Positions 5,583 through 22,339 of a DNA stretch of 62,165 nucleotides are shown here, piece after piece. The notes beneath the pieces were generated by a model. The model saw nothing but the letters and a program-made list of their open reading frames with translations, made no database searches and was not told the origin of the DNA. The stretch is from positions 1-62,165 of the IMG/VR virus record IMGVR_UViG_3300002307_000058. One strand, 5' to 3'. The position numbers and the translations under genes are program-made. Origin of the DNA: a virus. Taxonomy: Duplodnaviria; Caudoviricetes. How positions within the stretch are numbered: position 1 is the first letter of the stretch; each line of letters begins with the position of its first letter.

Positions 5583-5583
5583 C

Positions 5584-5769: not shown

Positions 5770-5782
5770 GGGCGGGTCTCCC

Positions 5783-5974
5783 TCAAGTTTCGGGTGGCGA
5801 ATTGTCCTCCTTTTGGCTGGCGGCTTCAAGCCCCATGGCAAGAAGAGCGTGGATCTTGTCGACTCGCGTCGCGGGCCCCGGCCAAGCGTCGAGCTTGGCG
5901 AGGATCTCGGGACGGAAGCGCACGAGGATGGGCTTCCAGTTGGTCTTGGGTCTGGCCACGGGTTTAGTCTCCAT
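5783..5974 (-). CDS. Ribbon-helix-helix DNA-binding protein
   Basis: PILVRF strand, then PEILAKLDAW and TRVDKIHALLAMGL helices. Confidence 0.65.
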   Translation of the reverse strand: METKPVARPKTNWKPILVRFRPEILAKLDAWPGPATRVDKIHALLAMGLEAASQKEDNSPPET

Positions 5975-6203
5975 ATCCGATCTTGAGGGGTGCAACCTTG
6001 GCCGCGTAATCTTCGGCTTCAGCCTTGGTGGCCCAAGGCTGGCGACCAATGCCAACTTGGCCGGTGTGCGGGTTGCGGACGGTCCAGCCGCGCTGGACGA
6101 TCTCCCAGCCCTCGCCCGCAGGCAATGCGCCGTAGATCGAGGCGGTGCGCCCGGTGGACTCTTGGAGCCAATGGCGGCTCTCGATCACTTCAAACTTGGC
6201 CAT
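5964..6203 (-). CDS. Hypothetical protein (79 aa)
   Basis: GGAG RBS, coupled to neighbours. Confidence 0.7.
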   Translation of the reverse strand: MAKFEVIESRHWLQESTGRTASIYGALPAGEGWEIVQRGWTVRNPHTGQVGIGRQPWATKAEAEDYAAKVAPLKIGYGD

Positions 6204-7491: not shown

Positions 7492-8046
7492 TCAGTAGTA
7501 TTCGGAGAAGTGAGAACCCTCCCCGGCGGCGCAAGGGTAAGCCCTCGCGTAGAAGGCGATCTTGAAGGACCCGTGGCTGATCTGCTTGACCATCGGCTCG
7601 CCTATGAACTTGCCGGGGACCGGGTAAGCCTTGCCCTGCATGGCGTGGCTATATTCCCGCTCGGCGGCGATCTTGCGAACCTTGACGCTCCGGACGCCGA
7701 CCAGTTCGACGACCTCGTAATAGTCCACTTGGGTCTGCTCGTAACCCCAAGAGCAACGGAACAACTGGCCGACCTTGAAGCCGTGGGGCTTGGCCAGTTC
7801 GGCCTTTTCCTTGGCTTTCTTCTCCGCCTTGCAAGCCTCGATGGCGGCGACGTGGGCGAAGAACTCTTTCGCCTTGGCCTCGCGCCGTTCGGGGCTCTTG
7901 AACTTCAGCCACCAGACGGGCTTGGCGGACTTGCCGCTGTAGGCGATGGCGCAGGCCTGACCGCAAACCTCGTAGGCGTGGATCTCGGCGCTGGACGCCT
8001 TGGCCTTGACGATCACGGAACCTTCGGGGGAGAAACGCTGCAACAT
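7492..8046 (-). CDS. Hypothetical phage protein (SWGYEQTQVDYY motif)
   Basis: AAGGAG RBS, strong codon bias, own promoter. Confidence 0.8.
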   Translation of the reverse strand: MLQRFSPEGSVIVKAKASSAEIHAYEVCGQACAIAYSGKSAKPVWWLKFKSPERREAKAKEFFAHVAAIEACKAEKKAKEKAELAKPHGFKVGQLFRCSWGYEQTQVDYYEVVELVGVRSVKVRKIAAEREYSHAMQGKAYPVPGKFIGEPMVKQISHGSFKIAFYARAYPCAAGEGSHFSEYY

Positions 8047-8078
8047 GGTGAGAACTCCTTCTCTGAAAACCTGCAATC

Positions 8079-8107
8079 AAGATATCTGCTAAATCGGACG
8101 ACGTCAA
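8079..8107 (-). promoter_or_regulatory. Sigma70-type promoter
   Basis: TTGACG-N17-TATCTT; leader similar to the 6463-6491 promoter. Confidence 0.75.
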
Positions 8108-8122
8108 ACGTTTTGTTTGTTT

Positions 8123-8404
8123 TTATCCCTCGACTTCGACCTCAATCCCTGCCCAGCGCTGCTTGCGATAGCCGCGCAAGGCCTTTTCGCCTTGGACGAG
8201 GCGGTGTTTGACGAAGTAGGACCCGGCCCAAAGCCCCTTGATCTTCTCGGAGAAGGCCTTTTCCGCCTCCTCGATCTCTGCGAGGTTCTTGACCTCGACA
8301 AACTCCCGGCCAAGCGCTCCGGAGAAAGGCGCGTAGTGCACCATCTTGACGCCCGGTTCGCACTCGCTGAACCAGCACTTGAAAGCATAGACTTGGATCT
8401 TCAT
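8123..8404 (-). CDS. Hypothetical protein
   Basis: AGGAGG RBS before ATG 8404. Confidence 0.7.
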   Translation of the reverse strand: MKIQVYAFKCWFSECEPGVKMVHYAPFSGALGREFVEVKNLAEIEEAEKAFSEKIKGLWAGSYFVKHRLVQGEKALRGYRKQRWAGIEVEVEG

Positions 8405-8417
8405 GGGATGCGCCCTC

Positions 8418-8582
8418 CTAGGCGGCAATGGACCGGAGCAGGGCGCTCCGGTGGTGGATCAGGGAACGAGCGGCGGCGGCGACCACGCAGCGGCCTCTGG
8501 CCAAAACCCGCAACTCTGCTAGACTTTTGCGAACCAGCCCGTGGGCCAACTCCGCAGAGAGAATTTCTTGGTGGGAGAACAT
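8418..8582 (-). CDS. Small hypothetical protein
   Basis: GAGGAGG RBS before ATG 8582; promoter TTGCGT-N16-TAAGAT at 8608-8635. Confidence 0.55.
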   Translation of the reverse strand: MFSHQEILSAELAHGLVRKSLAELRVLARGRCVVAAAARSLIHHRSALLRSIAA

Positions 8583-8662
8583 GACAACCTCCTCAAGGGA
8601 CAATTTGATCTTAGAGGATATCTCACAACACGCAAGAACTTTCTTTCTCTTTTTCACACAAA

Positions 8663-8863
8663 ATGACAAGCCGGGAGGATTTCACTTCCGCCGAAGCGGC
8701 CATGCAGGAATTTCTCCTGACGCTGGACCAGTTCCACAAATGCTGCGCGGCGGGCTATTGGTCGCTGGCGCAAGAGATGTCACTCGTGGCCTCGGCCCGG
8801 CTGGAATCGCATCTCGATCTGTTTCTCTCGGGCGCTCGAAAGGTGATCAGCGATGGCGAATGA
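8663..8863 (+). CDS. Hypothetical protein (66 aa)
   Basis: ORF overlapping the start of the MuF gene. Confidence 0.45.
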   Translation: MTSREDFTSAEAAMQEFLLTLDQFHKCCAAGYWSLAQEMSLVASARLESHLDLFLSGARKVISDGE

Positions 8864-10637
8864 ATCTTTCTACGACGTGATCACGCAGGCCATCGCCGAC
8901 TTCGCCAAGCACGGCTACGATAGCGCCGAGCGCATGGCCTATTGGCAGGAGCGGATCCGGCAGGCGGCGGAACGGTCCATGACCCCAGCTTGGCGGATGG
9001 AGGAGCAACTGCGGGCGTCCATGGGCGCGATCTACAAGCGCATGGTCGAGAACGCGGGAGCCCTGCGTTATCATCCGGGCGTGAGCCGGTTCACCCTCGA
9101 CAGCTTGCGCCCCCGGCTGCACGACGAGCTTCGCCGCCGGATCCTCGCCAGCGCCGACCTGATCCGGCTCAATCGGTCGCAGGCCATTGAGAAGACCCTG
9201 CAACGGTTCAGCGGCTGGGCTTCGTCCGTCCCGACCGGCGGGTCAAAGACCATCGACCGGGTCGACGAAAAGAAGACCCTGCGCAAGGCCCTCACGCAGC
9301 TCCCCTTTGAGGAGCGCCGAGTTTTGGTGGATCAGGGGACGAAATTGGTCGCCTCCATAAACCAAGTCATTGCGAGTGATGGAGGGGCTATTGCCGTAAA
9401 ATGGAACAGCCATTGGCGCGAGATCAACTACAACTATCGGGAAGACCACAAGGAGCGCGACGGCCAGATCTACCTGATCCGGGGATCGTGGGCGTCCAAG
9501 GGAGGCTTGGTCCAGCAGGGCGAGGCAGGCTACTACGACGAGGTCACGGCTGTCGCCGAGGAGCCCTTTTGCTTCCCCGGAGACTCAGAGATCCCATTCG
9601 CGGACGGTATAGAAGCCGCGTTTCGTCGTTGGTATGTCGGCGACTTGGTTGAGATGGTCACGTCGTCTGGAAACCGGCTTAAGGGAACACCGAACCACCC
9701 AGTCCTTACGTCGAAGGGTTGGGTCGCGCTGGGTTGTCTCAAGGAAGGCGACAACGTTGTCGAGATTTGCGAGAAAATGGGCCTCGGTCTTGAGCGTGAC
9801 AATCACGGAACAAAAGCCCGAATCTCGGACGTGTTTGCGGCGGTCGGGCGTGCTGGGTTTGCTGAAAAAAGAAGCGGCGGCAGTCACCAGTTCCACGGCG
9901 ATGGATCTGAACGCGACGTCGATGTTGTAAGGGCCGCACGGCCATTGACCTTCGACAGCATGACCCCGCGCCCGAAGCGCCTCGATCAAGGCCAGTTCTC
10001 CTTGACCAACTTGCGTAGATCTGCGGGACGCGCGTTTGATTTTTGTCTCCATGGAGTTGTGCGTTCCGCGCAGGGCGTCGTGAGCGGCTTGGGTCAGCTT
10101 CTTTCGCCCCTGCTCGCCCTCTCTCGCCATCCGAATCAAATTTGCCTCGCTGCGCCCTCGTTGCACCAGCCCGCCCTCTTTGATGGCGCGCACAACCACG
10201 GCGCGGGAGACGTCAAAGTCTCTGGCGATCTGGAGCACGCTTCGCCCTTCCGAGTGCAACCGGCAAACCTCCGCCGGGGGCAAGTCGATTCGGTTGTGGG
10301 CGGATCTCGGGACTGTGTCGAGCGAGACCTTCTGACTGTAAATCCGGCCCCAGAGCGTGCGAGGATTGACGCCCATGATTTTGGCGATCTTTTCGACGGA
10401 AAGCCCTTCTCCACGCAGCTTGGAAAGGTGGTCGAGGTCGAGCGGAACCATTGGTCTGGGCATGTCTACAATCTCCAAACGGAAGCTGGTTGGTATGTAA
10501 CACAAAATATCATTACGCACAATTGCAGATGTTTCGCCACCTACATATACCACTTGCGCCAGCTTCCCCCTGACATGCTGACCAAAAAGGGCCAGCTTCA
10601 ACTCGAAGAGGCTCGGCGCAAGATTGCGGCGCTTTGA
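8853..10637 (+). CDS. MuF/SPP1 gp7-like head morphogenesis protein containing an intein
   Basis: YREDHKERDG motif; splicing restores EPF-CRC, the MuF Cys motif; 276 aa after splicing. Confidence 0.85.
   Translation: MANESFYDVITQAIADFAKHGYDSAERMAYWQERIRQAAERSMTPAWRMEEQLRASMGAIYKRMVENAGALRYHPGVSRFTLDSLRPRLHDELRRRILASADLIRLNRSQAIEKTLQRFSGWASSVPTGGSKTIDRVDEKKTLRKALTQLPFEERRVLVDQGTKLVASINQVIASDGGAIAVKWNSHWREINYNYREDHKERDGQIYLIRGSWASKGGLVQQGEAGYYDEVTAVAEEPFCFPGDSEIPFADGIEAAFRRWYVGDLVEMVTSSGNRLKGTPNHPVLTSKGWVALGCLKEGDNVVEICEKMGLGLERDNHGTKARISDVFAAVGRAGFAEKRSGGSHQFHGDGSERDVDVVRAARPLTFDSMTPRPKRLDQGQFSLTNLRRSAGRAFDFCLHGVVRSAQGVVSGLGQLLSPLLALSRHPNQICLAAPSLHQPALFDGAHNHGAGDVKVSGDLEHASPFRVQPANLRRGQVDSVVGGSRDCVERDLLTVNPAPERARIDAHDFGDLFDGKPFSTQLGKVVEVERNHWSGHVYNLQTEAGWYVTQNIITHNCRCFATYIYHLRQLPPDMLTKKGQLQLEEARRKIAAL
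9570..10523 (+). mobile_element. Intein (318 aa) in MuF
   Basis: Block A CFPGDSEI, block B GTPNHPVLT..GW, block F VYNLQT, block G ITHN/C. Confidence 0.92.
9585..10463 (-). CDS. HTH-HTH-DUF559/Vsr-like endonuclease encoded antisense inside the MuF intein
   Basis: GGAG RBS before ATG 10463; two HTHs (GLSVEKIAKIMGV, GRSVLQIARDFDVS); GELALIEAL...G..VEGQ...GPYNIDVA..IAVE. Confidence 0.75.
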   Translation of the reverse strand: MPRPMVPLDLDHLSKLRGEGLSVEKIAKIMGVNPRTLWGRIYSQKVSLDTVPRSAHNRIDLPPAEVCRLHSEGRSVLQIARDFDVSRAVVVRAIKEGGLVQRGRSEANLIRMAREGEQGRKKLTQAAHDALRGTHNSMETKIKRASRRSTQVGQGELALIEALRARGHAVEGQWPCGPYNIDVAFRSIAVELVTAAASFFSKPSTPDRRKHVRDSGFCSVIVTLKTEAHFLANLDNVVAFLETTQRDPTLRRKDWVVRCSLKPVSRRRDHLNQVADIPTTKRGFYTVREWDL

Positions 10638-10662
10638 CTATCGCGGCGTTTTGCAGTATCTC
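10634..10662 (+). promoter_or_regulatory. Possible sigma70-type promoter
   Basis: TTGACT-N17-TATCTC. Confidence 0.4.
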
Positions 10663-10686
10663 TCGCCCTGAACCACGGGATCTCAA

Positions 10687-11088
10687 ATGGCATCGAACCT
10701 GAACATCTCGCTGGTGGCCGCACAGGCACAAGCCACGGCTCTGGCACCTCTTGCCAACACCGGCTTCATTGACATTTACTCGGGGACGCAGGCCGCAACG
10801 CCCGAGACCGCACCGGGCGTCACCGCACTGGCGACGTTCACGCTCCCGGCGACCTTCGCCTCAAGCATCACCAACGGCGTGATCACGGCCAACGCCATCG
10901 GCAGCGTGGTCATCTCTAACTCCGGCACCGCGACTTGGTTCCGGTGCTGGGAGGCCAACCACACCACGCCCCTGTTCGACGGCACGGTCGGAACCTCCGG
11001 CTGCGACATGAACCTCAACTCGGTCGCGCTGTCCTCCGGAGCCTCGCTCCAGATCAGTTCTCTGACCTTCACCGTTCCGGGCGTCTAA
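10687..11088 (+). CDS. Virion structural protein
   Basis: T/S/G/A-rich beta protein with GTATWFR...DGTVGTSG motif common in phage structural genes. Confidence 0.7.
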   Translation: MASNLNISLVAAQAQATALAPLANTGFIDIYSGTQAATPETAPGVTALATFTLPATFASSITNGVITANAIGSVVISNSGTATWFRCWEANHTTPLFDGTVGTSGCDMNLNSVALSSGASLQISSLTFTVPGV

Positions 11089-11091
11089 CCC

Positions 11092-12801
11092 ATGACCGAC
11101 GGCGTCGTCCTCAATCCCGGCACAGGTGGCGCGACCGTCGACACCGAGACCAATGCGTCGCGCAGCAATGCGCAGATGCAGCGGATGAAGCTGGTCCTCG
11201 GTGACGTGGACGTGGACGGCGGTGACGTATCTCTGACCAACCCCGCGCCGGTCATGTTGTCGCGGGTCAACTACGTCATCAGCACCCTGAACTCGACCAC
11301 GACGCAGCTTGCGGCGGGCCAGACGTGGACGGGCGAAATCGAGGCCGGGGACTCCCAGCCTGCGATCTCCATCGACGTGGTGTCGGACCAGAGCGGCACC
11401 CTGACGCTGAGTCAGTTCATCGACGCAGCAGGCACCCAACCTCTGCGTCCGGTTGTCTTTCCGATCACAGCGGGCGTCGGCTTCGGCTGGTCCCTGACGC
11501 TGAACGGGAACTATGTCCGGCTTTCGTTCCTGAACGGCGGAATCGGCCCGACGACCACGCTGTCGATCAGCACGGCCTATGGCGTCATCAATTCAGCCAC
11601 GTCGCTGGGCAATGCGCCAGTCGCCATGATGGAGGTCGGCGGACAGACCATAGACCCCAACATCGGCTTCCCGGTCGACGTTCAGGCGGTCAATGGCGCT
11701 CCGGTCGCGACTAAGGGTATACCGGTCGTTGACCCTGTCATCGCGTCTGCGTCCGAGAACGAGCGCCCCCTGTCTCAGGTCATCGTCGGCTCCGGTGATG
11801 GTGACTATGCCGGGCAGAGCCTGATCGAGCTCCTGATGAACCCCGACTCCAAGGAGTCGGCGGCGGTGCGGGTCGTCAACCCTCCGAAGCTGGACGCCTC
11901 TGGGGCGACGGTCGTCTCCGACGCGCTCTCTCCGGGGACCTACACCTTCGGCGGCGCAAACCAGCAGATCATCGTTGACACGACGGGATATGCGTCCGTC
12001 GCTCTGGCCATTGTCGGCACTTGGGCGGGGACGATCACCTTCACCCAGTCCAACGACCTCCAGACGTGGCAGACGCTTCAGGGCGTGGTCAGTTCGGCCC
12101 CGCAGGTCGCGCTAGGAGCGACATCGGTCAACGGGCAGTTCCTCTTCCCCGCCATGGCCCGCTATGTGCGCGCCCAGATCACGACCTATACGTCTGGTCT
12201 GGCCGTCCTCGTTCCCTACCTCCGCATTGCCCCCTTCACGGCGCTTCAGGCGGCGAACCTGAACTTCATCAACGGCACGGCTCCTGTCACGGCGAACGTC
12301 GCGGGCATGCTCGCTGTTGGCGGCAACATCGCCCACGGATCCGCGCCCACGGCCTTCCCTCTGCTGGCGGGTGGCACGGACTACAACGGTCTGACCCGCC
12401 GGGTCCAGACCGACAACAGCGGCAACCAGATTGCCGCTGGCTCGCTTCCGGCAGGTTATGCTGTCGGCCAGTATAACGTGACCTATAGCAAGACCACGGT
12501 CGCCTTCGCCTCCGCCCAGTTCCCGACCCTGACAGCGGCGCAGAGTTCTGTCGCGCCGGTCCTGATCGGCGGCGTCGACCCCGGCGGCTTCGTTCGTCAG
12601 GCCCAGACCACGCCGTCCGGCCAGTTGTCGGTCAGTCTGGACGCGCCCAGCGCATCCGGCCAGTCCGTGGCCGAGCTTCTGGCCCAGCTTGTTGCTCTGA
12701 TGCGCGTGAACAACTATTATCAGGCGGTCGGCCTTGGCCCCACCGCCGACGACCCCGAGGCCGTCCTCGGCGAATATCTGGCTCAAAACCCCATCAACTG
12801 A
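11092..12801 (+). CDS. Putative virion fibre/decoration protein (569 aa)
   Basis: Beta-rich, low charge, in structural operon. Confidence 0.6.
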   Translation: MTDGVVLNPGTGGATVDTETNASRSNAQMQRMKLVLGDVDVDGGDVSLTNPAPVMLSRVNYVISTLNSTTTQLAAGQTWTGEIEAGDSQPAISIDVVSDQSGTLTLSQFIDAAGTQPLRPVVFPITAGVGFGWSLTLNGNYVRLSFLNGGIGPTTTLSISTAYGVINSATSLGNAPVAMMEVGGQTIDPNIGFPVDVQAVNGAPVATKGIPVVDPVIASASENERPLSQVIVGSGDGDYAGQSLIELLMNPDSKESAAVRVVNPPKLDASGATVVSDALSPGTYTFGGANQQIIVDTTGYASVALAIVGTWAGTITFTQSNDLQTWQTLQGVVSSAPQVALGATSVNGQFLFPAMARYVRAQITTYTSGLAVLVPYLRIAPFTALQAANLNFINGTAPVTANVAGMLAVGGNIAHGSAPTAFPLLAGGTDYNGLTRRVQTDNSGNQIAAGSLPAGYAVGQYNVTYSKTTVAFASAQFPTLTAAQSSVAPVLIGGVDPGGFVRQAQTTPSGQLSVSLDAPSASGQSVAELLAQLVALMRVNNYYQAVGLGPTADDPEAVLGEYLAQNPIN

Positions 12802-12810
12802 GGACTCCCA

Positions 12811-13464
12811 ATGGCCACTCTGACACCGACTCCGCCCCCGGCTGGCGCTCTTCTCCCGACTTCTCGCGGCACTGGCGCAAACGCCCCTTCCGGCCTGCTG
12901 GGAGAACTGCTGGTCACTGAGGCGCTTCCGCCCTACCACGCCATGCTCAAGTCGGGTCTGGTGTTCTCGCTTTCCTCGACCACCCAGACCGCCGCCACGG
13001 CGTTCACGGGCGGTGCGGCAGGCACGCCGATCTTCGGCCTCTACAACCCCGCAAGCTCCGGCAAGGACCTCGTGATCCTTCAGGCTCGCTACGGCATCCG
13101 GACCACCGGCACCACCGCAGGCACCGTGGACTTCTCGTTCTACGCAGTCAACCAAGGCGGTGTGGCCGTCACCGGCACCCAGACGCAGGCCCGCAACCTC
13201 TACTCGCAGGCCAACTCTGGCGCTGTCGCCTATGGCATGGTCAACACCGCCAACACCGCCGCGCTGGCATCGACCCTGATCGCTCCGTCCCTGTCTCTGG
13301 GCAACGTCACCACCACCGCCGGCCTGAACGTCGGCGTGCTCGTGGACGACGTGAAGGGCGCAATCATCGTCTCCCCCGGCGCGTATCTTGCTCTTGGGTG
13401 CTCTGCGACTCTCGCTGTTGGCTCCATGGACTTCTCGCTGATCTGGGCCGAGCTTCCGGTCTAA
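12811..13464 (+). CDS. Putative virion structural protein
   Basis: GAGGA RBS; A/T/G-rich composition. Confidence 0.65.
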   Translation: MATLTPTPPPAGALLPTSRGTGANAPSGLLGELLVTEALPPYHAMLKSGLVFSLSSTTQTAATAFTGGAAGTPIFGLYNPASSGKDLVILQARYGIRTTGTTAGTVDFSFYAVNQGGVAVTGTQTQARNLYSQANSGAVAYGMVNTANTAALASTLIAPSLSLGNVTTTAGLNVGVLVDDVKGAIIVSPGAYLALGCSATLAVGSMDFSLIWAELPV

Positions 13465-13499
13465 CCGACTACTGACGCCCTCGGCAGGAGGAGCGAACC

Positions 13500-14183
13500 T
13501 TGTCCCTCCTCCTGCTCTACCAGCAGAATCTCTCGTCCACGAACTCGGCCACAGCAGCCCTGATTCAGGACGCTTCCACTCTCTCGTCCACGGCCACTGA
13601 GTCCTTCTCGGCAGCGCCGACCTTCCTTCAGAAGCGTTCCACGACTGCCGCTGCGGCGACGGAGAGCTTCCCGGCCTCGGCTGGCCTCCTCCAGCGCCGC
13701 TCCACAACGGCCATCGCCGGGTCCGGAGCCTTCTCCGCTTTCGGGGCGCTGGCGCAGGCCAGAGACCGGGCGGCGATTGTTGCTCTGGCGATTCACACCG
13801 GCTCCATCGGAGCGACGCAGGCCAAAGACCGGGCGGCGATCACCGACAGCGAGATCTTCTCCGGCGCAGCCCCACTCACTCAGCGGCGCTCGACGATTGT
13901 CGTAACGAACTCCGAGTCTTTCTTCGGCACGTTCACGGCGACGCAGCGCCGGTCCTCAACCGGCGTTGTCGTTGTTGAGGCTTTCGCGGCGACGGTCGCG
14001 GCGACGCAGCGCCATTCTTCGGCGCACGTCGAAGTCACGGTGACCCTGCCGCACGCGCCTCTCAGTTTTACCGCCACACCAAGCTGGTGGGCCGCTGCAC
14101 ACGCCACACCCAACGGCGGGCCTGATCTCTGGAGCCCGCAGAACTACCTCGCGACTCCAGCGTGGTGGAATAAGAGCCACTAG
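13500..14183 (+). CDS. Repeat protein with eight tandem ~21-aa units
   Basis: GGAGGAG RBS, TTG start; Q(R/K)RS(T/S) or QA(R/K)DRA recurring every 21 aa. Confidence 0.65.
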   Translation: MSLLLLYQQNLSSTNSATAALIQDASTLSSTATESFSAAPTFLQKRSTTAAAATESFPASAGLLQRRSTTAIAGSGAFSAFGALAQARDRAAIVALAIHTGSIGATQAKDRAAITDSEIFSGAAPLTQRRSTIVVTNSESFFGTFTATQRRSSTGVVVVEAFAATVAATQRHSSAHVEVTVTLPHAPLSFTATPSWWAAAHATPNGGPDLWSPQNYLATPAWWNKSH

Positions 14184-14239
14184 CGCCGATTGCGCCTTTT
14201 GGTGTATTGTCAAGTTTACGTCCAAGGACCCGCGCCCCC

Positions 14240-16030
14240 ATGCCCCTCGCCTCTGGCTCCTCGAAGCAAGTCGTCAGCCGGAACATCGCGACCGAGCGCC
14301 GGGCGGGCAAGCCCGAGAAGCAGGCCGTGGCCATCGCGCTGAACAAGGCGCGGGGGGATGCAGACGAAGACGACACGCTCATCGGAGCAAAGCTCGTCAA
14401 TGGCGTTTGGCGGCTTACCGACAACGGCAATTTGATTGGGGATGCTAGGGGCCAGCCGAGCAAAGCTGCTGCTTATGCCTACGCAAAGAAGTTTTTTGGA
14501 ACCGGCGTGAAATATGATCCGCAACTCTCGCGTCCTGATTCCAATTCGGCGCGTGGGAAGGTTCAAGCCGATTCCGGAGACCAGCGTGTCACGCCCGAGC
14601 TTCAGAAGCTCTACGACAAGGTCCGCGCCATCGAGTTCAAGATGAAGGCCGGGCGTCGGGAGAACATCGACTTCCTGACCACGCCCGAGGGCCGTCGTCT
14701 GGCGATCCAGCTTGAGGCCGTCGAGGACAACATCAAGAAGCTGGAGTCCAGCCTTGGCAAGATGGCTCCCCCGAAGCTGCGAGAGATTATCTCCGGCATC
14801 GCCAAGGAGGCTGGCATCTCCAGCGACCGTAAGCAGGTCCGCGCCATGACCCGTGACCTGCTGAGCATCGTCAAGTCCTCGCGGACGGACGCCTTCACCA
14901 AGACCAGCGTCGCGGATCGTCAGTGGACCGTCAAAGTTCTCTTCAAGGATGGTGAAGAAGGCACTGTGATGGTCTATGCCAAAGACCAGCCCGACGCCAA
15001 AGCCAAGGTCGAGGCACAATGCCGCAACCACGGCGGCAAGATCGTCGGCGCTCCGCAGGCGCGCAAAGACTCCACCCACACCGGCACCCTAACACCAGAA
15101 GGAATGAAAATGACCAAGTCTGCTGTGCGCGGGGACTCCACCATCAAGAAAGGCAAGACCTCCGGCACCTACGCCGTGTTCCGTGGCGACGCCTGCGTGG
15201 CCAAGGGCTTCGCCACCAAGGCCGACGCCGTGGCTTATACGTCGAAGGCTGACGCTTACGTCGAAGTCGCCAAAGCGCTCGGCACATACAAGGGCTTCAA
15301 GTTGGTTCAAGCCCCGCGTCGCCGCGCTGGAGAAGTCGACGTCGAGGGTCCAAACCTCCCCGACTCCTTGGACCTGATCTTCCCCAGCGAAGCCGCCGCC
15401 AAGAAGGCCATCGACAAGCACCTCGCCGCCAAGGCCGACGCGACCCAAGAAGAAATCAATGAAATGGCAGCGGCCTACAACAAGCAGAAAAACCCTGCCT
15501 TCAAGGTTTATTTCAAGGTGAAGGGAAAATCTAATTACGGCCTTGAAGTCGCATCCACCGAACAAGAGAAAAATGACATTGTAAGAAGGCTACGGGCGAA
15601 GGGATATGTCGTAAAGACAGAACGCGGGGCGAAGGCCGACGCCGTGGCCTATACGTCGAAGGCCGACGCCTCCGACGACGACTACCTGCGCCCCACGAAC
15701 GCCTACAAAGGCCCCCGGCCCAAGACCCCGGACGCCTCGCCAGAGCGCGAGAAAGCCCGCGTGGCTGCGCAGGCCAAGGAAGAGGCGCGCATGGCCGAGG
15801 TCGTAAAGCGCAACGCCGAACACCGCGCCAAGCTCTTGGCCAACAAGCGGAAGGACGCTGCGGGCGTGGAGCCCAAGGTCGGCCAGACGTGGGAGAATGC
15901 GGGCAACGGCGTCAAAGTTCTGATCAAAGCCGTGAACGGCACCAGTGTCACCTTTGAGAACCACGAGGGCCAGATCTTCAAGTTCCCCCGCGACAAGCTC
16001 TACACCAAGTTCGTTATTTCGCGCAAATGA
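14240..16030 (+). CDS. Modular head-associated protein (putative polyprotein, 596 aa)
   Basis: N-terminal MPL..GSS..VVS.NI..E..AGKP.KQAVAIAL motif; 12 [KR]xD[AS] motifs separate unrelated modules; ATGA-coupled to protease gene. Confidence 0.75.
   Translation: MPLASGSSKQVVSRNIATERRAGKPEKQAVAIALNKARGDADEDDTLIGAKLVNGVWRLTDNGNLIGDARGQPSKAAAYAYAKKFFGTGVKYDPQLSRPDSNSARGKVQADSGDQRVTPELQKLYDKVRAIEFKMKAGRRENIDFLTTPEGRRLAIQLEAVEDNIKKLESSLGKMAPPKLREIISGIAKEAGISSDRKQVRAMTRDLLSIVKSSRTDAFTKTSVADRQWTVKVLFKDGEEGTVMVYAKDQPDAKAKVEAQCRNHGGKIVGAPQARKDSTHTGTLTPEGMKMTKSAVRGDSTIKKGKTSGTYAVFRGDACVAKGFATKADAVAYTSKADAYVEVAKALGTYKGFKLVQAPRRRAGEVDVEGPNLPDSLDLIFPSEAAAKKAIDKHLAAKADATQEEINEMAAAYNKQKNPAFKVYFKVKGKSNYGLEVASTEQEKNDIVRRLRAKGYVVKTERGAKADAVAYTSKADASDDDYLRPTNAYKGPRPKTPDASPEREKARVAAQAKEEARMAEVVKRNAEHRAKLLANKRKDAAGVEPKVGQTWENAGNGVKVLIKAVNGTSVTFENHEGQIFKFPRDKLYTKFVISRK
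15218..15669 (+). repeat. 38-bp direct repeat (15218-15255, 15632-15669) encoding KADAVAYTSKADA
   Basis: 36/38 identity by direct comparison. Confidence 0.9.
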
Positions 16031-17154
16031 TCCACGCCGCCGGGATCCTCTTCGTCACCCCTGACAAGCTCGCGCTTTTCGTCAAGCGCGGGAACGGGAG
16101 TGACCATTCTCTGGAATGGTGCATTCCCGGAGGGAGGCGCGAGGAGGGCGAAACGACGGAACAGTGTGCCATCCGCGAGACCCTAGAGGAATGCGGCCAA
16201 GAGGTCGGCTCTGAGGCTATCGTGTATCACACCAGAGGAATTGCCTTGGCGCAGCCGCCCGCAGCCTTGGCAATGCCCACGGGGGAGGCTGGGGACGCCT
16301 CTCCCCTCCAGCCTTCCCCCGTGGCTGCATCCGAGGACGTGGACTTCACCACCTATCTGTCCCGGATCGAGCGCCCCTTCCCCGTGACCCTGTGCGACGA
16401 ACACACCGGATACGCTTGGGCCAGCGTCGACGCACCCCCAGAGCCGCTACACCCCGGCGTGCGCGTGGCTCTGGCCCGGCTGTCCATGGACGAACTGGGC
16501 GTGGCCAAGGCCATGGCCGAAGGCCTGCTGGTCTCACCCCAGCGTTACGAGAACATGACCCTCTTCGCCCTCCGGATCACCGGGACGGGCGTCGCCTTCC
16601 GTTCTTCCATCGACGAGTTCGTGTTCCGGGACCCGTCGCTCTATCTTAACGACGAGTTTCTGCAACGCTGCGCCGGGCTTCAGGTCATTCTGGAACACCC
16701 GACCAACGCGACCCTGACCAGCAAGGAATTTCTGGACCGCACCATTGGCTCCGTCATGTTCGCCTATATCAAGGGCGACGAGGTCTGGGGCATTGCGAAG
16801 ATCTACGACGACGAGGCCATTGACCTGATGATGACGAAGCCCACGAGCACGTCTCCAGCAGTGGTCTTTAAGGATCCCAGCGTTAATGCTAAGATGACGC
16901 TGGAGGATGGCTCGCCGCTCCTTATCGAGGGGCGACCGAGTCTCTTGGACCACATTGCCGTGCTCCCTGAAGGGGCGGGCGTCTGGGACAAAGGCGGGGA
17001 TCTGGCCGGGGTCGATCAAACAGCGACCGAAGTCCGGGCGGATTCCCAAACAGGACCGGTTGCGCTTGATCTGACGAAGATTCGTCGGATTGATCGCACC
17101 CTGCACCTGCTGGACATCAGACTGTCGAACCTTGCCGCATCGCGGCGAACCTGA
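16027..17154 (+). CDS. Nudix hydrolase fused to DUF2213-type prohead protease
   Basis: Nudix box GGRREEGETTEQCAIRETLEECG; RITGTG, ILEHP, STSPAV, LDHIAV...GVWDKGG; lies before scaffold and capsid. Confidence 0.85.
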   Translation: MIHAAGILFVTPDKLALFVKRGNGSDHSLEWCIPGGRREEGETTEQCAIRETLEECGQEVGSEAIVYHTRGIALAQPPAALAMPTGEAGDASPLQPSPVAASEDVDFTTYLSRIERPFPVTLCDEHTGYAWASVDAPPEPLHPGVRVALARLSMDELGVAKAMAEGLLVSPQRYENMTLFALRITGTGVAFRSSIDEFVFRDPSLYLNDEFLQRCAGLQVILEHPTNATLTSKEFLDRTIGSVMFAYIKGDEVWGIAKIYDDEAIDLMMTKPTSTSPAVVFKDPSVNAKMTLEDGSPLLIEGRPSLLDHIAVLPEGAGVWDKGGDLAGVDQTATEVRADSQTGPVALDLTKIRRIDRTLHLLDIRLSNLAASRRT

Positions 17155-17176
17155 ACCTCTTTTGGAGCACCACCAA

Positions 17177-17926
17177 ATGGCCGAAGAAATGACTGAAGCC
17201 CGCGACGACGCCGACGCGGGCCAGAAGCTGGACAAGATCCTCACCCATCTGGACAGCCTGACCAAGCGCATGGACGCACTTGAGAAGCCGCCGGAAGAAA
17301 TGGCCGACGCCGACGAGACCGAAGAATACGAAGACGCCGAAGGCGAGTTCGAGTTCGAAGGTGAGCCGGAAGAAGTCGTTGGCGATTCCGACGACGAAGA
17401 CGAGCCGGAAGCCAAGAAGGACGCCGAAGGCGACCGCGAAATGGAAGAGACCGCGAAGGCCGACTCCATGAACGAAGTCCAGCGCCGGATCGACCGCGTC
17501 GAACGCATGCTCCCCAAGCAACTCTCCGACGCCGACTACGCCAAGATGGCCGACGCCCAAGCCAAGGCCGACAGCGTCTACCAAGCCTTCGGCGACGCCG
17601 CCCCGCGCCCGCTGCAAGGTGAGAACCTGACCGCCTACCGCCGTCGTCTGGCCAAGGGCCTTCAGTCGTACAGCGCCCAACTGAAGGAAGTCAACCTGTC
17701 GGCCATCAAGGACCCGGCGGCGTTCAACTTCATGGAAGGTCAGATTTACTCGGACGCCATGGCCGCAGCCCTGACGCCTCGCGACCTGCCCCTCGGACAG
17801 CTTCGCGAGATCAAGCGCCGCGACTCGACGGGTCGTCAGATCTCGGAGTTCGTCGGTCAGCCCATCTCTTGGCTGTCGCAGTTCACCGGCCACCGTCGTC
17901 GCGTCTCGGCCTTCAACAAGGGCTGA
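17177..17926 (+). CDS. Scaffolding protein
   Basis: Acidic coiled-coil with many DA/DS dipeptides; between protease and capsid genes. Confidence 0.8.
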   Translation: MAEEMTEARDDADAGQKLDKILTHLDSLTKRMDALEKPPEEMADADETEEYEDAEGEFEFEGEPEEVVGDSDDEDEPEAKKDAEGDREMEETAKADSMNEVQRRIDRVERMLPKQLSDADYAKMADAQAKADSVYQAFGDAAPRPLQGENLTAYRRRLAKGLQSYSAQLKEVNLSAIKDPAAFNFMEGQIYSDAMAAALTPRDLPLGQLREIKRRDSTGRQISEFVGQPISWLSQFTGHRRRVSAFNKG

Positions 17927-17960
17927 TCCCTCCCGTTCTCGCCTTGAAAGGGCATGACCA

Positions 17961-18851
17961 ATGACTGCCAATGTTTCCTTCAACCCGATTGTGACCACGA
18001 ACGCGGCGGGGACCTTCAACCTCTCCTCCTCGGGTTACATTTCCGGCACCGCCCTCAACGACCCCGCCGTTCGCAACCTTCTGGCGGGCGGCATTGTCGC
18101 CTCGACCGAAACCGTTCCCATGTGGGGCGGCATCGGCATTTCGGAAGTGTCTGTCCCGGTCGCGTCCTCGGGCAACTACCCAAGCTCCAGCCTCGGCGGC
18201 TACATCACCCGCGCCACCAACATCTCCACCGTTGGCGCGGCCTCCTCGCTGACCGGCTTCACCGTGTTTGATCAGGGCCACGCCATGATCAACACGCCGC
18301 AATCTCCGGTTCCGGTCGCTGGTTCCTATCAGACCATTGGCTTCTATCGTCTGGGCAGCAACGCCCGGATCGTCGTCCCCTGCGACCCGGCCCTGATCTC
18401 GCTGAACGGCACGATCGTCACCAACCGCGTCTCGTGGGACTTCGTGAACCAGCGTCTGGAGCCCTACATCGCCTCGGCTCTGACCATCTCGTCCGCGACC
18501 TATGTTTCCGGAACTGGCGTCGTCACCTTGACAATGGCCGCTCCCGTGACCTTCGGTCCGGGCGACGCTATCGTCGTTTCCGGCTTCACCGGCACAGATG
18601 CGGCCAGCGTCAACGGCACCTTCACCGCCCTGACCGCCTCCGGCACGTCTGTCACCTACGCCACGGCTACCGGCAAGAGCCCGGCCTTTACCGGCTCTCC
18701 GGTTCTGACCCTCGGCTCCGGTGCAGGCTCGGCTCTTCCGGTCCGCGTCCTCGACGTTCAAGCCTCCAATTCGATGGTCCCGTCCTACGACCCGACCACC
18801 GGCTTCGTGACTTGGAACCGTAACGGCTCCGTCGCCGTCATCCTCATCTAA
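17961..18851 (+). CDS. Capsid decoration/cement protein with an inserted beta domain
   Basis: Position before MCP; MWGG..ISE and YRLGSNARI motifs. Confidence 0.7.
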   Translation: MTANVSFNPIVTTNAAGTFNLSSSGYISGTALNDPAVRNLLAGGIVASTETVPMWGGIGISEVSVPVASSGNYPSSSLGGYITRATNISTVGAASSLTGFTVFDQGHAMINTPQSPVPVAGSYQTIGFYRLGSNARIVVPCDPALISLNGTIVTNRVSWDFVNQRLEPYIASALTISSATYVSGTGVVTLTMAAPVTFGPGDAIVVSGFTGTDAASVNGTFTALTASGTSVTYATATGKSPAFTGSPVLTLGSGAGSALPVRVLDVQASNSMVPSYDPTTGFVTWNRNGSVAVILI

Positions 18852-18882
18852 CGGCGCATCGCCACAAACAGGAGACTGAATC

Positions 18883-19905
18883 ATGGCGAACATCGCGCCG
18901 TCCTTCGCAATCGTCAATCCGAGCTACATCGACCCCGGCATCCTGCTTCCCTACACGCAAGCTTCCGGTGCGTTCGATCTGCTTCCCGAGGGCCAGCCCC
19001 TCCCGCGCCTGTCGGATGGCGATCTCTATGCCTACATCAAGACCATCGACGTCCGCTCCAAGGTCGCCGCCGGTCAGTCGGCCTACAACAGCCTGCCGTC
19101 GATCAGCACCACGCTGTCGATGATTTCGACCCCGTCCTACCTGTTGCGCGTGCGCGGCGAGTATGACCACCACGACACCGCCGCCATGGGCCGCTGGGGC
19201 GTCAACATCATTGACACCCAGCGTCTCGGCATGCGTCAGGGTCACTTCCAACTGGCGCGCACCGCGCTCCTGTATGGGATGAACCCGGCCAACGGCGAAG
19301 GGCTCGTCAACACCAGCGGCGCGACTGCGGTCAACCTGCCTGCGGACAGCAACGGCAACACCACCGTCGTCACCTACGACAACGGTCAGATGGCCACCTT
19401 CCTGCTGACCCAGATCTCGGCTCTGAAGACCCGCACCAACCAGCTTGGCATTGGTCGTAAGTTCACAATCCTCGGCCCCCAGCGCGTCCTTGGCGCTCTG
19501 GAATACCAGAACATCGTGCAACTGACCCAGTTCCAGCGCGCCGGGGCCGGTTCGACCTCGACCGCCGGAATGGTCAAGGACGTTCTTGAAATGAACGGGG
19601 ACGAGATCACGTGGGTCTACGACGACACCCTGATCGGCAAGGGCGCTGGCGGCACTGACGCCGTCATCATCAACATGCCGGAGGTGCAGAAGCCTCAAGG
19701 GTCGAAGATCAACACCAATGCCTTCGCCGCTCTGGCCCCCGGCATCGACGCTTGCTCTTTGATGTATTGCGATAAGTCCGCCCCAGTTGAAATCCCGACG
19801 CCTCTGCCGGGCGGCGCTATCGACGTGCTGTCCGAGTGGCGGATCACCTCCGGCTGGGGCGTCCGCCCCGAGTCGATCTCGATCCTGTCGATGCAATATC
19901 AGTAA
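18883..19905 (+). CDS. Major capsid protein
   Basis: 340 aa, AGGAG RBS, strong codon bias, ends TSGWGVRPE, followed by a hairpin. Confidence 0.85.
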   Translation: MANIAPSFAIVNPSYIDPGILLPYTQASGAFDLLPEGQPLPRLSDGDLYAYIKTIDVRSKVAAGQSAYNSLPSISTTLSMISTPSYLLRVRGEYDHHDTAAMGRWGVNIIDTQRLGMRQGHFQLARTALLYGMNPANGEGLVNTSGATAVNLPADSNGNTTVVTYDNGQMATFLLTQISALKTRTNQLGIGRKFTILGPQRVLGALEYQNIVQLTQFQRAGAGSTSTAGMVKDVLEMNGDEITWVYDDTLIGKGAGGTDAVIINMPEVQKPQGSKINTNAFAALAPGIDACSLMYCDKSAPVEIPTPLPGGAIDVLSEWRITSGWGVRPESISILSMQYQ

Positions 19906-19935
19906 GCGGGGCCGGGCGGCTTTGCTCTAGTGATA

Positions 19936-19967
19936 CCCGGATCCCCAATCGCGGGGATCCGGGATTT
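19936..19967 (+). terminator. Hairpin after capsid gene
   Basis: CCCGGATCCCC-N6-GGGGATCCGGG then ATTT. Confidence 0.55.
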
Positions 19968-19987
19968 ACCTTAAGGGAGAGACCCAT

Positions 19988-20461
19988 TTGAAGATGTTCA
20001 TCGCGAACTGCACCATGCAGGTCCAAGACTTCCAATACCGCACTCCAGAGTCCCAGAAGATCCGCCAGCAGATGATCCCCATCCTTGGGCAGGTCCAACT
20101 GAGCGGGGATCTTAATACGCCGGAGATCGACTTCATCGTCGAACAGCACGCGCCCTACGGCCTTGTTCATGTCAAGGACGTGGATCGCACCAAGCCTTTT
20201 GTGGGCACGTGCTACGACGTGGACAAGCGGATCGACGTTGAGAAGATCCGCGTCGCGCACGCCCACAATCAGGAAGTCCTGACCGAGCGCGGAAAGGAAA
20301 TCCGCAAGGAAGCCGCCGTCGTGATCAACGATTCTCTGGAGAAGGAAAGCAAGGATCTTTTGGGTCTGGAGCTTTCCATCGTCGAAGACACCAAGACCGG
20401 CAAGGACGTCGAAGTCAACGAGCGGATCAAGGTTGACCGCACGCACAAGGGCAAGAACTGA
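19988..20461 (+). CDS. Hypothetical head-completion region protein
   Basis: AAGGGAG RBS, TTG start, synteny. Confidence 0.7.
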   Translation: MKMFIANCTMQVQDFQYRTPESQKIRQQMIPILGQVQLSGDLNTPEIDFIVEQHAPYGLVHVKDVDRTKPFVGTCYDVDKRIDVEKIRVAHAHNQEVLTERGKEIRKEAAVVINDSLEKESKDLLGLELSIVEDTKTGKDVEVNERIKVDRTHKGKN

Positions 20462-20901
20462 TGGAGCCGACGCTGGCGGGATTCACGGCTTGGGTGCGGG
20501 GCGTCATGGGCGTCACCACGACCCAACTTCCGGACAACTCGCCAGCGTTGGGCTACGCTTTCGCCGTGGCCATGGAGATCGTCAACCTTCAACTCCAGTC
20601 GGCCAGCGCGCTCATCTACCAGCTTGCGGTCTACAGCCTCGGCGGCGACAACCTGATCAACTGGGCTCCTGACCAGCCCGGCTCTACCTTCTTCGCCGAC
20701 CTGCGCAAGAGTTTCGGCTGCAACTCGTTTGTCGGCGGCATCATCTCGTCCACCAGCGACGAGGGAACCAGCGAGTCCATTCAGGTCGTCAAGTCGCTTG
20801 AGAACCTCGTTCTGTCGGACTTGCAGTCCCTGAAGACGCCCTACGGTCGCCAGTATCTGGCCTTCGCCATGCGTGTCGGAACCCTCTGGGGGATCTCGTG
20901 A
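20461..20901 (+). CDS. Head-tail adaptor (DUF4054-like)
   Basis: GIISSTSDEGTS and KTPYGRQYL motifs. Confidence 0.75.
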   Translation: MEPTLAGFTAWVRGVMGVTTTQLPDNSPALGYAFAVAMEIVNLQLQSASALIYQLAVYSLGGDNLINWAPDQPGSTFFADLRKSFGCNSFVGGIISSTSDEGTSESIQVVKSLENLVLSDLQSLKTPYGRQYLAFAMRVGTLWGIS

Positions 20902-21347
20902 AGCTGTGCATGGGCGTCTATGATCTGCCTTACGCCCACGACAAGGACGGGAAAGGCACGGGCGACGTCGCCGAGATCCTCGAAGCCAAGTATCACCCCA
21001 TGGAACTCTACTGGGAGAGCCACGAAAACGAGATCGTGGGCCACATCACAGAGGCCATGGCGGGCGTTCTGGAGAGCGTCTTCATGGGCGCTCCGCCCCC
21101 GGAGGACCTGACGCAAGCCGTGCAGAGCGGCTGCTCGCAGATCGACGCGGGCTTCAAGATGTTCCTGTCCAGCCGGGAATTCGAGTATCAGGCGCGACTG
21201 GCCGGGAACATTCTTGACGTCCCGACCAAGGCCGCGCTGGCGGGCGTCAACCACCGCAAGAAGCTGAAGAAGGGCGCTCGCCGCCCGTCCCTGATCGACA
21301 CCGGTCTCTATGAGTCGTCGTTTGTCAGTTGGGTGGAGCGCGACTGA
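20898..21347 (+). CDS. Neck/tail completion protein
   Basis: RPSLIDTGLY motif; synteny. Confidence 0.7.
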   Translation: MKLCMGVYDLPYAHDKDGKGTGDVAEILEAKYHPMELYWESHENEIVGHITEAMAGVLESVFMGAPPPEDLTQAVQSGCSQIDAGFKMFLSSREFEYQARLAGNILDVPTKAALAGVNHRKKLKKGARRPSLIDTGLYESSFVSWVERD

Positions 21348-22339
21348 TGGCGAGCGTCAATGAGGCTGCGGGCGACCGCACAGAATTCGCCGCCGGGCTG
21401 AAGCTCGGCCTCGACACCCTGTCCAAACGTCAGGAGATCACGTTCACCAAATACGTGAAGATGATCCTGCCTCTTGATGGTTTCGTGTTCTGGGTCAAAG
21501 CCGACATCCTGTCACCCATCGGTATCAACGCAGCGGCGATCAACACCCAAGAGATCAACGCCACGCCCAAGGTCCAGAACCCGGCGAACACGATCAAGGC
21601 CATGGGCTCGCTGCACTATGCCACCGAAAACAATCAGGACGAGACCGAGGGCTTCGCCACCAACCGCGTGATCTTCACCTCGGAAGTGGACGTGGAGGAA
21701 CTGAACACCATCGCTCCCCGCGTCCTGTATGTCGGGGAGTTCGAGGGGCTGAAGTTCGCGTTTTCCATGCGCTCGTCGTTCTACCGGCAGGCGGACCTGT
21801 TCCACTATCAGGGCTTCGCTGTCTATCCGGCGCTTGCGACCCAGTTGATCGACACGCCCGTCGAGGCGATGAACCGGGACCTTGTGGTCAGCAACAGCCT
21901 GCCAATCTGGCTGACCCTGAACCAGCAATGCCCGATGTATCCGTCCTTTCTGATCGACGACAACATCAATCCGCCGTGGTGCGCAGTCCACATCGAACCG
22001 GGCATGACCAGTGGCCTCCAGTCCGCGCCCTTCATCGACAGCAACGGCTCACACTGGCAGCTTGCCACCGATCATGTTAGATTGACCTTCTACGGTTTGC
22101 GGAACGACGCGATCTTCGACTGGCTGGACTATGTGCTTCAGTTCTCTCTCTATTCGGAGGTCATGGGCGTCATGAACATCCCGGTTCCGAGAGACGACAA
22201 GCGCACGCAGGCCGAGCTTGGCGTTCTGGCCATTCGCAAGACCATTGAGTTCGACGTCAACTATTACCAAGCCCGCGTCCGAGACGCCGCCCTGACCTAC
22301 ATCAAGAGCGTTTTCCTCGATCTGATCGTCTCCTTTTAA
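21347..22339 (+). CDS. Head closure/tail terminator-like protein
   Basis: LPLDGFVFWV motif; synteny before sheath. Confidence 0.6.
   Translation: MASVNEAAGDRTEFAAGLKLGLDTLSKRQEITFTKYVKMILPLDGFVFWVKADILSPIGINAAAINTQEINATPKVQNPANTIKAMGSLHYATENNQDETEGFATNRVIFTSEVDVEELNTIAPRVLYVGEFEGLKFAFSMRSSFYRQADLFHYQGFAVYPALATQLIDTPVEAMNRDLVVSNSLPIWLTLNQQCPMYPSFLIDDNINPPWCAVHIEPGMTSGLQSAPFIDSNGSHWQLATDHVRLTFYGLRNDAIFDWLDYVLQFSLYSEVMGVMNIPVPRDDKRTQAELGVLAIRKTIEFDVNYYQARVRDAALTYIKSVFLDLIVSF

Follow-up and report, generated by a model that had tools for sequence, protein, structure and literature searches.

The complete virus record IMGVR_UViG_3300002307_000058 (IMG/VR; Duplodnaviria, Caudoviricetes), all 62,165 bp of which is referred to here as the window, represents a myovirus-type phage whose head module holds a gene for a 596-aa protein, P0001. 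The module runs from a MuF-like head-morphogenesis gene through four open reading frames (ORFs) to this gene, then to a gene for a Nudix hydrolase fused to a putative DUF2213-like head-maturation protease, and on to the scaffold, a phrog_6268 protein and the capsid (Table 1). P0001, which we call the cargo protein, begins with a conserved leader of about 40 residues and is thereafter punctuated by a short word, [KR]xD[AS], that recurs in the scaffold and near the end of the protease. On the sequence evidence set out below, the gene probably encodes a cargo polyprotein that belongs to the phage head and is cut by the prohead protease. Handles beginning with P denote leader-family proteins and those beginning with L the viral loci compared; an arrow within a motif marks the putative scissile bond.

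A chain of small modules behind a conserved leader

The motif was noticed in a first-pass annotation made from the letters of the window alone, which counted 12 copies in P0001. A regular-expression count returned exactly 12: RGDA at residue 38, RPDS at 98, RTDA at 215, RKDS at 275, RGDS at 297, RGDA at 315, KADA at 327, 336, 398, 465 and 474, and RKDA at 537. Shuffled versions of the protein held a mean of 1.39 motifs (standard deviation 1.13) and 12 were reached in 0 of 20,000 shuffles. Set against the remaining proteome, as the annotation had proposed, the enrichment held, the window's other 48 ORFs, 13,937 aa in all, containing 11 motifs for 11.3 expected. Three products of the window concentrate the motif, with 12 copies in the cargo protein, six in the scaffold and one in the C-terminal region of the protease.

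Cleavage at every motif would yield fragments of 40, 60, 117, 60, 22, 18, 12, 9, 62, 67, 9, 63 and 57 aa. The same annotation had described these intervals as unrelated basic modules of ~50-100 aa. Their lack of relationship is borne out by BLASTP among the pieces, which matches only a duplicated 9-aa spacer; the size fits several pieces of 57-67 aa but not the full range of 9-117 aa, and the basic character holds for most modules but not for module 1, whose net charge is 0. The chain can thus be described as about nine small, mostly basic, unrelated modules (about 57-117 aa) and two 9-residue spacers, with a net charge over the whole protein of +35 and a pI of 9.8 (+30 without the leader). 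Two pairs of motifs flank the duplicated spacer, AVAYTSKAD, which lies in a 39-nt DNA repeat with 2 synonymous differences. Modules 3, 5 and 7 recur at other positions in P0002, P0008 and L012 with their edge sites conserved. In P0002 and P0008 a homologue of module 3 comes next after the leader and is bounded by a site at either end, and the L012 polyprotein holds, in tandem, two modules related to module 7, each copy again lying between sites. A counterpart of the small module (aa 300-338) is found C-terminally in P0002 (336-368), including FRGDAC and the [KR]ADA that follows; as both are conserved inside the module, the motifs at 315 and 327 may be structural rather than boundaries. No shorter stand-alone homologue of residues 41-596 was found at E ≤ 0.01 among 7,041 candidates, and the ESM Atlas gave no usable feature match for the cargo, its structural rows having TM (template modelling) values of 0.14-0.22. 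The best segment match, of module 2 to phiKZ_IP (E 0.079), was not significant and was rejected. A whole-protein AlphaFold2 model made with no alignment had a mean pLDDT (predicted local distance difference test) of 43.9 and was used for secondary structure alone; in this low-confidence single-sequence model coil flanks 10 of the 12 putative scissile bonds against an expected 52% (binomial P 0.027), which lends weak support to their being cut sites. Two further cargo modules were seen to recur in several polyproteins, one Cys-containing (CW.GY..G.K.KGG..VPNCVP) and one with the pattern KYP.K....W.Y.R.LLLAAAREARMHGHEDLA, which is probably the DUF6582 match reported below (proteins with the two modules: P0129, P0042; P0051, P0153, L019).

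The leader that the annotation had picked out by eye, MPL..NI..E..AGKP.KQAVAIALNKARGD, proved to be a genuine family, matching phrog_2423, a 52-position profile of small head-module proteins, at E 1.9e-14 with the whole protein and at 1.6e-16 with aa 1-40. Across 38 aligned members P2, L3, N15, K27, Q28, A29, A31, I32 and A33 are invariant. An exhaustive HMMER search found 375 cluster representatives carrying the leader at E ≤ 1e-3, and among the matches listed (150 of the 375), which are 56-812 aa long, nearly all match through their own N-terminal leader alone; to judge from these sequences, leader-headed clusters carry hypervariable tails. We examined 153 family proteins, comprising the query, three search hits and 149 further members of the 375 clusters. 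All 93 of the members of at least 100 aa match phrog_2423, and their Pfam matches are few: NUDIX (2), DUF2213 (1), DUF6582 (1) and DUF6496 (1), besides single weak matches. In at least 60 of the 153 the leader ends in an R-x-D-A/S site. A further 80 viral loci were collected with the leader profile (L010-L089), of which 68 encode stand-alone proteins of 41-72 aa and 12 encode longer ones. The stand-alone form consists of the leader and a Lys/Arg-rich tail, is usually encoded just after the portal or MuF-like gene and is, by its sequence and setting, a very common, uncharacterised small basic head-module protein. The neighbours of the leader gene in the 80 loci are portal, head-morphogenesis, minor head, protease and capsid genes, and it is likewise found in the head module of phage phiEap-2 and of a P22-like genome. 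The leader also forms the N-terminus of DUF2213 protease-scaffold fusions (BcepB1A gp26, L031, L089, L053, P0003, P0004 and P0153). A second, unrelated leader (MPT.S..Q.R.MEAAAH...G...VG.EF) was observed in the same place before the Nudix-protease in L002 (3633-4004) and in gene 44 of Shewanella phage vB_Sb_QDWS (QDWS_44, L091), where KARAD↓A lies between this leader and the Nudix domain.

Comparison of these loci shows where the cargo sits. In P0003 and P0004 the leader runs directly into a Nudix-protease-scaffold protein, the junction in P0003 reading ..ALNKARGD↓A and then Nudix, and cargo is likewise absent from PdC23 and L005. Elsewhere the sequence after the leader grows from 0 aa in P0003 and P0004 to about 120 in L003, 330 in P0002, 510 in L012 and 555 in the window. 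In six loci the cargo ORF ends immediately before a phrog_6216 Nudix-protease gene, with total cargo-protein lengths of 161 aa in L003, 228 in L010, 550 in L012, 114 in L014, 175 in L019 and 596 in the window; L010, L012, L014 and L019 are the four cargo-bearing loci among the 80 whose leader ends in ARGD. The coupling of cargo and protease genes, as the annotation had reported it, is visible as an ATGA stop/start overlap, which is kept in five of the six loci (window, L003, L010, L012 and L014), L019 having a 2-nt gap instead. A -1 frameshift fusing the two ORFs was considered and rejected in favour of termination-reinitiation, because ATGA is kept in five independent loci and no slippery heptamer was seen by eye before it. 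The protease of L012 is 71% identical to that of the window and its 550-aa cargo also has 12 motifs, yet nothing beyond the leader (73%) and one module (33%) is common to the two cargos. Since the protease is conserved while the cargo is replaced, the cargo is a hypervariable, recombining cassette, set between the leader and the Nudix-protease beside otherwise conserved machinery.

Table 1. Features of the window, with the parts of the cargo gene (residue numbers are those of the protein named).
Feature	Position (strand)	Description
Large terminase	529-1974	
Portal	2810-4282	
436-aa ORF directly after the portal gene	4272-5582 (+)	Partial match to 1440-position 'minor head protein' profile phrog_16619, E 3.3e-12
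Head-morphogenesis gene (MuF/SPP1 gp7-like), interrupted by intein	8853-10637 (+)	Intein PF14890 E 5.4e-7, aa 252-557; flanks match phrog_15127 and phrog_324
Four ORFs of 133, 569, 217 and 227 aa between the MuF-like and cargo genes	10687-14183 (+)	Ala/Thr/Gly-rich
Cargo polyprotein gene (P0001, 596 aa)	14240-16030 (+)	ATG start gives the conserved MPL N-terminus
Leader, aa 1-40	14240-14359 (+)	Ends at first motif, RGD↓A; helices 8-21 and 26-40 (low-confidence model)
Module 1, aa 41-100	14360-14539 (+)	Ends RPD↓S; no family
Module 2, aa 101-217	14540-14890 (+)	Four predicted helices; net +7; ends RTD↓A
Module 3, aa 218-277	14891-15070 (+)	Predicted beta-beta-alpha-beta; ends RKD↓S
aa 278-338	15071-15253 (+)	22-aa piece ending RGD↓S; small module aa 300-338 with RGDA 315 and KADA 327; first spacer aa 330-338
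Module 6, aa 339-400	15254-15439 (+)	Ends KAD↓A
Module 7, aa 401-467	15440-15640 (+)	Predicted beta-beta-alpha-beta; net +5
Second AVAYTSKAD copy, aa 468-476	15641-15667 (+)	KAD↓A on both sides
Module 9, aa 477-539	15668-15856 (+)	Long predicted helix 501-540; net +5; ends RKD↓A
Module 10, aa 540-596	15857-16027 (+)	Predicted all-beta mini-domain; net +4; best-modelled part, pLDDT 60-75
ATGA stop/start overlap	16027-16030 (+)	
Nudix hydrolase fused to DUF2213-like head-maturation protease	16027-17154 (+)	Nudix aa 4-60 (Pfam); protease aa 199-316
VRAD↓S near protease C-terminus	17035-17046	aa 337 of the protease
Scaffold	17177-17926 (+)	Start ATG 17177 or 17189; C-terminal part of phrog_6216, E 5.3e-46
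phrog_6268 protein, conserved in the head module	17961-18851 (+)	Between scaffold and capsid genes; 0 [KR]xD[AS] motifs
Major capsid protein	18883-19905 (+)	phrog_6671 E 1.1e-144; weak phrog_264 and PF09950; 0 motifs
Tail sheath	22793-24169	

The [KR]xD[AS] word as a candidate processing site

Beyond the window, the word is enriched across the leader family. The 58 members whose leader ends in R-x-D-A/S, a sample that leaves out P0001 and the fusion protein P0003, carry 164 motifs after that junction against 27.8 expected (5.9-fold), and with P0003, L010 and L012 added (61 members) there are 190 against 31.4. Among control words, the shifted forms reach 1.33-fold ([KR]D[AS]), 2.69-fold ([KR]..D[AS]) and 1.71-fold ([KR]...D[AS]) the expected number, while [KR].E[AS] stands at 0.78, [KR].D[DE] at 0.60, [DE].D[AS] at 0.44 and the reversed word at 0.76. 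The residues of the sites are themselves biased, with Ala (77%) or Ser (23%) at P1', Arg (67%) or Lys (33%) at P3 and a 5.4-fold over-representation of Met at P2. Placement of the motif relative to modules in homologues agreed in part with the first-pass expectation that it marks their boundaries. Of 197 high-scoring segment pairs aligned between family cargos, 41% have their end no more than 3 aa from a motif (11% with random placement) and 62% their start no more than 5 aa from one (36% at random), and the recurring modules described above keep their edge sites; the motifs at 315 and 327, inside a conserved module, may not fit.

The word also occurs at junctions of the conserved machinery. 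It stands at the boundary of leader and Nudix domain in fused relatives (ARGD↓A in P0003, SKAD↓S in L053), and a canonical copy marks the boundary of protease and scaffold in 7 of 15 clade members (window, L003, L004, L012, P0003, P0004 and PdC23), reading VRSD↓S in PdC23. Cultured members of the clade include Pantoea phage PdC23, Klebsiella phage Chronis and Shewanella phage vB_Sb_QDWS. The copy in the window is the RADS which the annotation had placed near the protease C-terminus, and which was found there as VRAD↓S. The scaffold motifs it had listed (KKDA, KADS twice and RRDS) are all present, and RDDA and RMDA bring the count to six against 0.65 expected when the protein is translated from 17189. 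Scaffolds of the window, L002-L006, PdC23 and QDWS_44 hold 6-11 motifs each for 0.65-1.8 expected. Proteins with the same leader and a different DUF2213 subfamily show no such enrichment, with 1 motif in BcepB1A gp26, 1 in L031 and 0 in L089 (expected 0.78, 1.07 and 0.71), and the word therefore tracks the protease clade, not the leader. Taken together, the comparisons support the view that the head protease of this phage clade uses the motif as a site of processing, for it behaves as such a site would.

The candidate enzyme matches NUDIX at E 4e-11, phrog_530 ('head maturation protease') at E 5e-5 and phrog_6216 at E 1.8e-95. Across 12 clade members His224, Ser274-Thr-Ser276-Pro and Asp308-His309 are invariant, a His, Ser and Asp pattern that would suit a prohead-type Ser/His protease, and in relatives the protease domain is fused to the scaffold. 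Against the +35 of the cargo, the Nudix-protease has a net charge of -20 and the scaffold one of -21 (-28 over residues 1-135). In 37 of the 153 family proteins (P0004-P0143) there is an amphipathic helix that ends R/K-[MILV]-D-[AS], as in CDSLAKRMDA, and resembles the conserved LDSLTKRMD↓A helix at the scaffold start (about aa 20-30 of the window scaffold); it could be a docking element. A scaffold-like helix in the cargo of the window itself was sought and rejected, module 2 having no similarity to the window scaffold (E 5.6). In L003 an ORF with an HNH-type endonuclease motif, recognised by eye (..HHIIPK..N..L..H..), lies at 5117-6030 between the protease and scaffold genes and splits a pair that is fused in other relatives.

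Proposed mechanism, rival explanations and known systems

What the sequences show is an enriched, clade-specific motif and where it falls; from this we infer a pathway of cleavage, packaging and perhaps ejection. The precursor would be made in step with the Nudix-protease through ATGA termination-reinitiation and would enter the procapsid with a core of acidic scaffold and protease, electrostatic co-assembly between basic cargo and these acidic partners being a plausible, if conjectural, route of entry. Within the procapsid a DUF2213-type serine protease would cut the precursor, most likely after Asp, a position chosen by analogy with the A-x-E↓ sites of SPN3US gp245, and would use this word also to trim its own chain and that of its scaffold. 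The basic proteins thereby released, of 6-13 kDa, would remain beside the DNA inside the head, and the host may receive them by ejection. A bolder proposal, which we put forward only tentatively and consider doubtful, is that the conserved ~40-residue leader and its recombining orphan mini-proteins, each bounded by a prohead-protease site, constitute a widespread undescribed delivery system in which a single late gene would load the capsid with a combinatorial set of small basic effectors, for example anti-defence or DNA-protecting proteins, to be freed within the head and injected along with the DNA; by the N-degron rule, the Ala and Ser N-termini left by cutting would be stabilising in the host.

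Several observations weigh against a head-packaged polyprotein cut at these sites. A conserved module encloses some of the motifs, or a helix starts at them (aa 315 and 327; SKED↓A in L012), and one, at aa 338, falls within a predicted helix of the low-confidence model; they cannot all be boundaries. Nine segments (the leader and 8 cargo segments) were scanned against Pfam and PHROG, with no significant match for any cargo module. Family members lacking the strict junction expression are also enriched (76 motifs against 15.7) and so make no clean negative control, and the family members are not independent, some sharing near-identical segments that inflate the counts. The canonical motif is missing from the protease C-end in 8 of the 15 clade members, most of which have D or E then S at the protease-scaffold boundary. 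As for the protease, its PF09979 (DUF2213) match scores 21.1 bits against a cut-off of 22 (E 3.4e-4) and is sub-threshold, a DUF2213 match at E ≤ 0.01 is found in only 4 of 12 clade members, an AlphaFold2 model from 12 sequences renders the Nudix domain well and the protease domain at pLDDT <50, and a profile of that domain found nothing below E 0.24 among PDB sequences. P0001, unlike the fused relatives, is not covalently linked to the scaffold, and it has no scaffold-like R-[MILV]-D-[AS] helix; the cargo-bearing relatives are all metagenomic. Finally, the leader is often stand-alone, also in phages annotated as P22-like and in phage RSB1, and so is not simply a protease-dependent signal; it may be a targeting signal or just the first product of the polyprotein, and its frequency as a separate protein speaks for an independent product.

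The serious rival, which we nevertheless judge unlikely, is that the gene encodes disposable core filler, an auxiliary scaffold or core component chopped at its motifs along with the scaffold, whose fragments leave the head before or during packaging and whose modules would do nothing in the next host. Scaffolds are where the motif is densest, the motifs of family cargos lie close together (median 34 aa apart, interquartile range 14-59) at intervals that resemble scaffold fragment sizes, a scaffold-type helix ends in R-[MILV]-D-[AS] in the 37 family proteins noted above, and no module matches a known function; in SPN3US, propeptides are likewise cut many times and mostly leave the head (PMC10052503). 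Filler would, however, be expected to co-evolve with the capsid, whereas cargo is almost wholly replaced between phages with 71%-identical proteases and is dispensed with altogether in P0003, P0004, PdC23 and L005. Moreover, beta-alpha mini-domains are predicted in the cargo, which is basic (+30) and shows normal complexity, in contrast to the acidic, low-complexity N-terminal part of the scaffold (DEKRA 0.59 against 0.45 in the cargo).

It is less probable still that there is no cleavage at all and that [KR]xD[AS] is a structural word (a helix N-cap, an R-G-D beta-turn or a charged linker) spread by duplication and recombination through a single 65-kDa multidomain head or DNA-binding protein. 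The motifs conserved inside a module (315 and 327), the one in a predicted helix (338), the origin of the linker KADAVAYTSKADA in a recent DNA duplication and a conserved scaffold site, Q-x-[KR]-x-D-[AS]-V, in a conserved helix would all suit such a word. It would not be expected to require basic P3, Asp P1 and Ala or Ser P1' while its Glu, shifted and reversed variants remain near or below expectation, nor to track one protease clade and sit exactly at the leader-Nudix and protease-scaffold junctions, and a structural word should exceed chance elsewhere, which it does not in the 48 other ORFs. The least likely reading, to which we give very little credence, has the protein cut late in the cytoplasm by a phage or host protease, its pieces acting in the producing cell in assembly, lysis timing or superinfection exclusion. 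P0001 is indeed a separate polypeptide without a recognised capsid-targeting element, and coupling to the protease gene would make both appear together; against this, every phage sampled has its leader gene within the head module, a protein made late can act only briefly in the producing cell, and prohead proteases of HK97-, T4- and herpes-type systems act inside the procapsid.

The preferred reading, a packaged and processed polyprotein, resembles the protease-processed internal proteins of other phage heads, yet lacks features that define membership of the T4, phiKZ/SPN3US and polyvalent systems. In T4 the internal proteins (IPI-III and Alt) carry an N-terminal capsid-targeting sequence that is removed by the gp21 prohead protease; they are basic, are stored with the DNA and ejected, their genes are dispensable and variable, and the word cut, [LI]-x-E, has an acidic P1 and a small P1'. 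P0001 shares with them an N-terminal leader followed by a short site with acidic P1 and small P1'. Unlike the T4 proteins, each a single unit with one leader and one cut, it has ~12 sites and ~9 units per precursor; its word is [KR]-x-D and not [LI]-x-E, the [KR].E[AS] form falling to 0.78-fold in relatives; the neighbouring protease matches DUF2213/phrog_530 and not the gp21 (S77) family; and its 40-aa leader is also widespread as a stand-alone protein. The first-pass comparison was with eukaryotic viruses, in which, as with picornavirus 3C and retroviral Gag, one precursor is cut by one viral protease at a short site between units, with small spacer peptides. A spacer between double sites (AVAYTSKAD) is common to both, with processing deduced here from sequence, but there is no evolutionary relation, and the units here would be accessory cargo, not core replication or capsid proteins.

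Further parallels come from three papers. T4 propeptides direct proteins into the core of the prohead, and SPN3US gp245, which favours Ser at P1', cleaves behind A-x-E, makes several cuts within propeptides and takes off a C-terminal piece of its own (PMC10052503). The substrates of phiKZ/SPN3US gp175/gp245, which include many head and ejection proteins, resemble the cargo in their P3-x-P1(acidic) word, Ser at P1' and multiple sites, and the self-trimming of the SPN3US protease has its analogue in VRAD↓S. In phiKZ/SPN3US, by contrast, a long N-terminal propeptide is taken off one mature protein, whereas here the whole chain is apparently split into comparable units that are shuffled between phages. 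Polyvalent proteins of phages and conjugative elements (Iyer et al. 2017, PMC5512222) are similar in having many domains, late or virion genes, predicted DNA co-delivery and processing, and domain shuffling; they differ in being large, with 2-15 recognisable effector domains and their own zincin-like MPTase, where P0001 has orphan mini-modules. No peptidase family was found in P0001 in Pfam scans, and it apparently relies on the motif of the prohead protease. A Nudix domain fused to a capsid-processing serine peptidase has been predicted to be head-packaged and injected (Iyer et al. 2022, PMC9503650, section 3.5.2), and the gene downstream of the cargo is exactly such a fusion; the passages available from that paper mention no leader, no [KR]xD[AS] word and no inserted cargo polyprotein. 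A search of literature outside subscription journals and supplements returned no description of the motif, the architecture or DUF2213 specificity.

If the motif is a real site, it would define the specificity of the uncharacterised, common DUF2213-like head proteases, and the rule of basic P3, Asp P1 and small P1' would make maturation sites predictable in many genomes. It would also amount to a polyprotein strategy in tailed phages, of a breadth suggested by the many family leaders that end in such a site, and hundreds of orphan 6-13 kDa modules would become candidates for proteins delivered with the DNA, a class that yielded anti-restriction factors in T4 and P1. Were this so, the leader-plus-site design would also offer a ready means of filling phage heads with foreign proteins.

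Other genes of the window

Outside the head module the window encodes a baseplate wedge protein, a DNA polymerase, a helicase and a primase. A megablast search of positions 8000-22000 against phage genomes found no match. In relatives the MuF-like gene lies directly 5' of the leader/protease gene, as it does of the protease gene in L005 and PdC23, and for this reason the block of four ORFs between the MuF-like and cargo genes looks like an insertion; Pfam and PHROG scans of three of these ORFs gave no match. The ORF directly after the portal gene may, from its partial profile match, encode another candidate head-packaged protein. The intein in the MuF-like gene is in-frame, and a 338-aa ORF runs antisense through the same gene (9585-10601, minus strand), which may be a high-GC artefact. 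In the last of the four ORFs, repeats of ~20 aa (..TQRRST..) are visible by eye.

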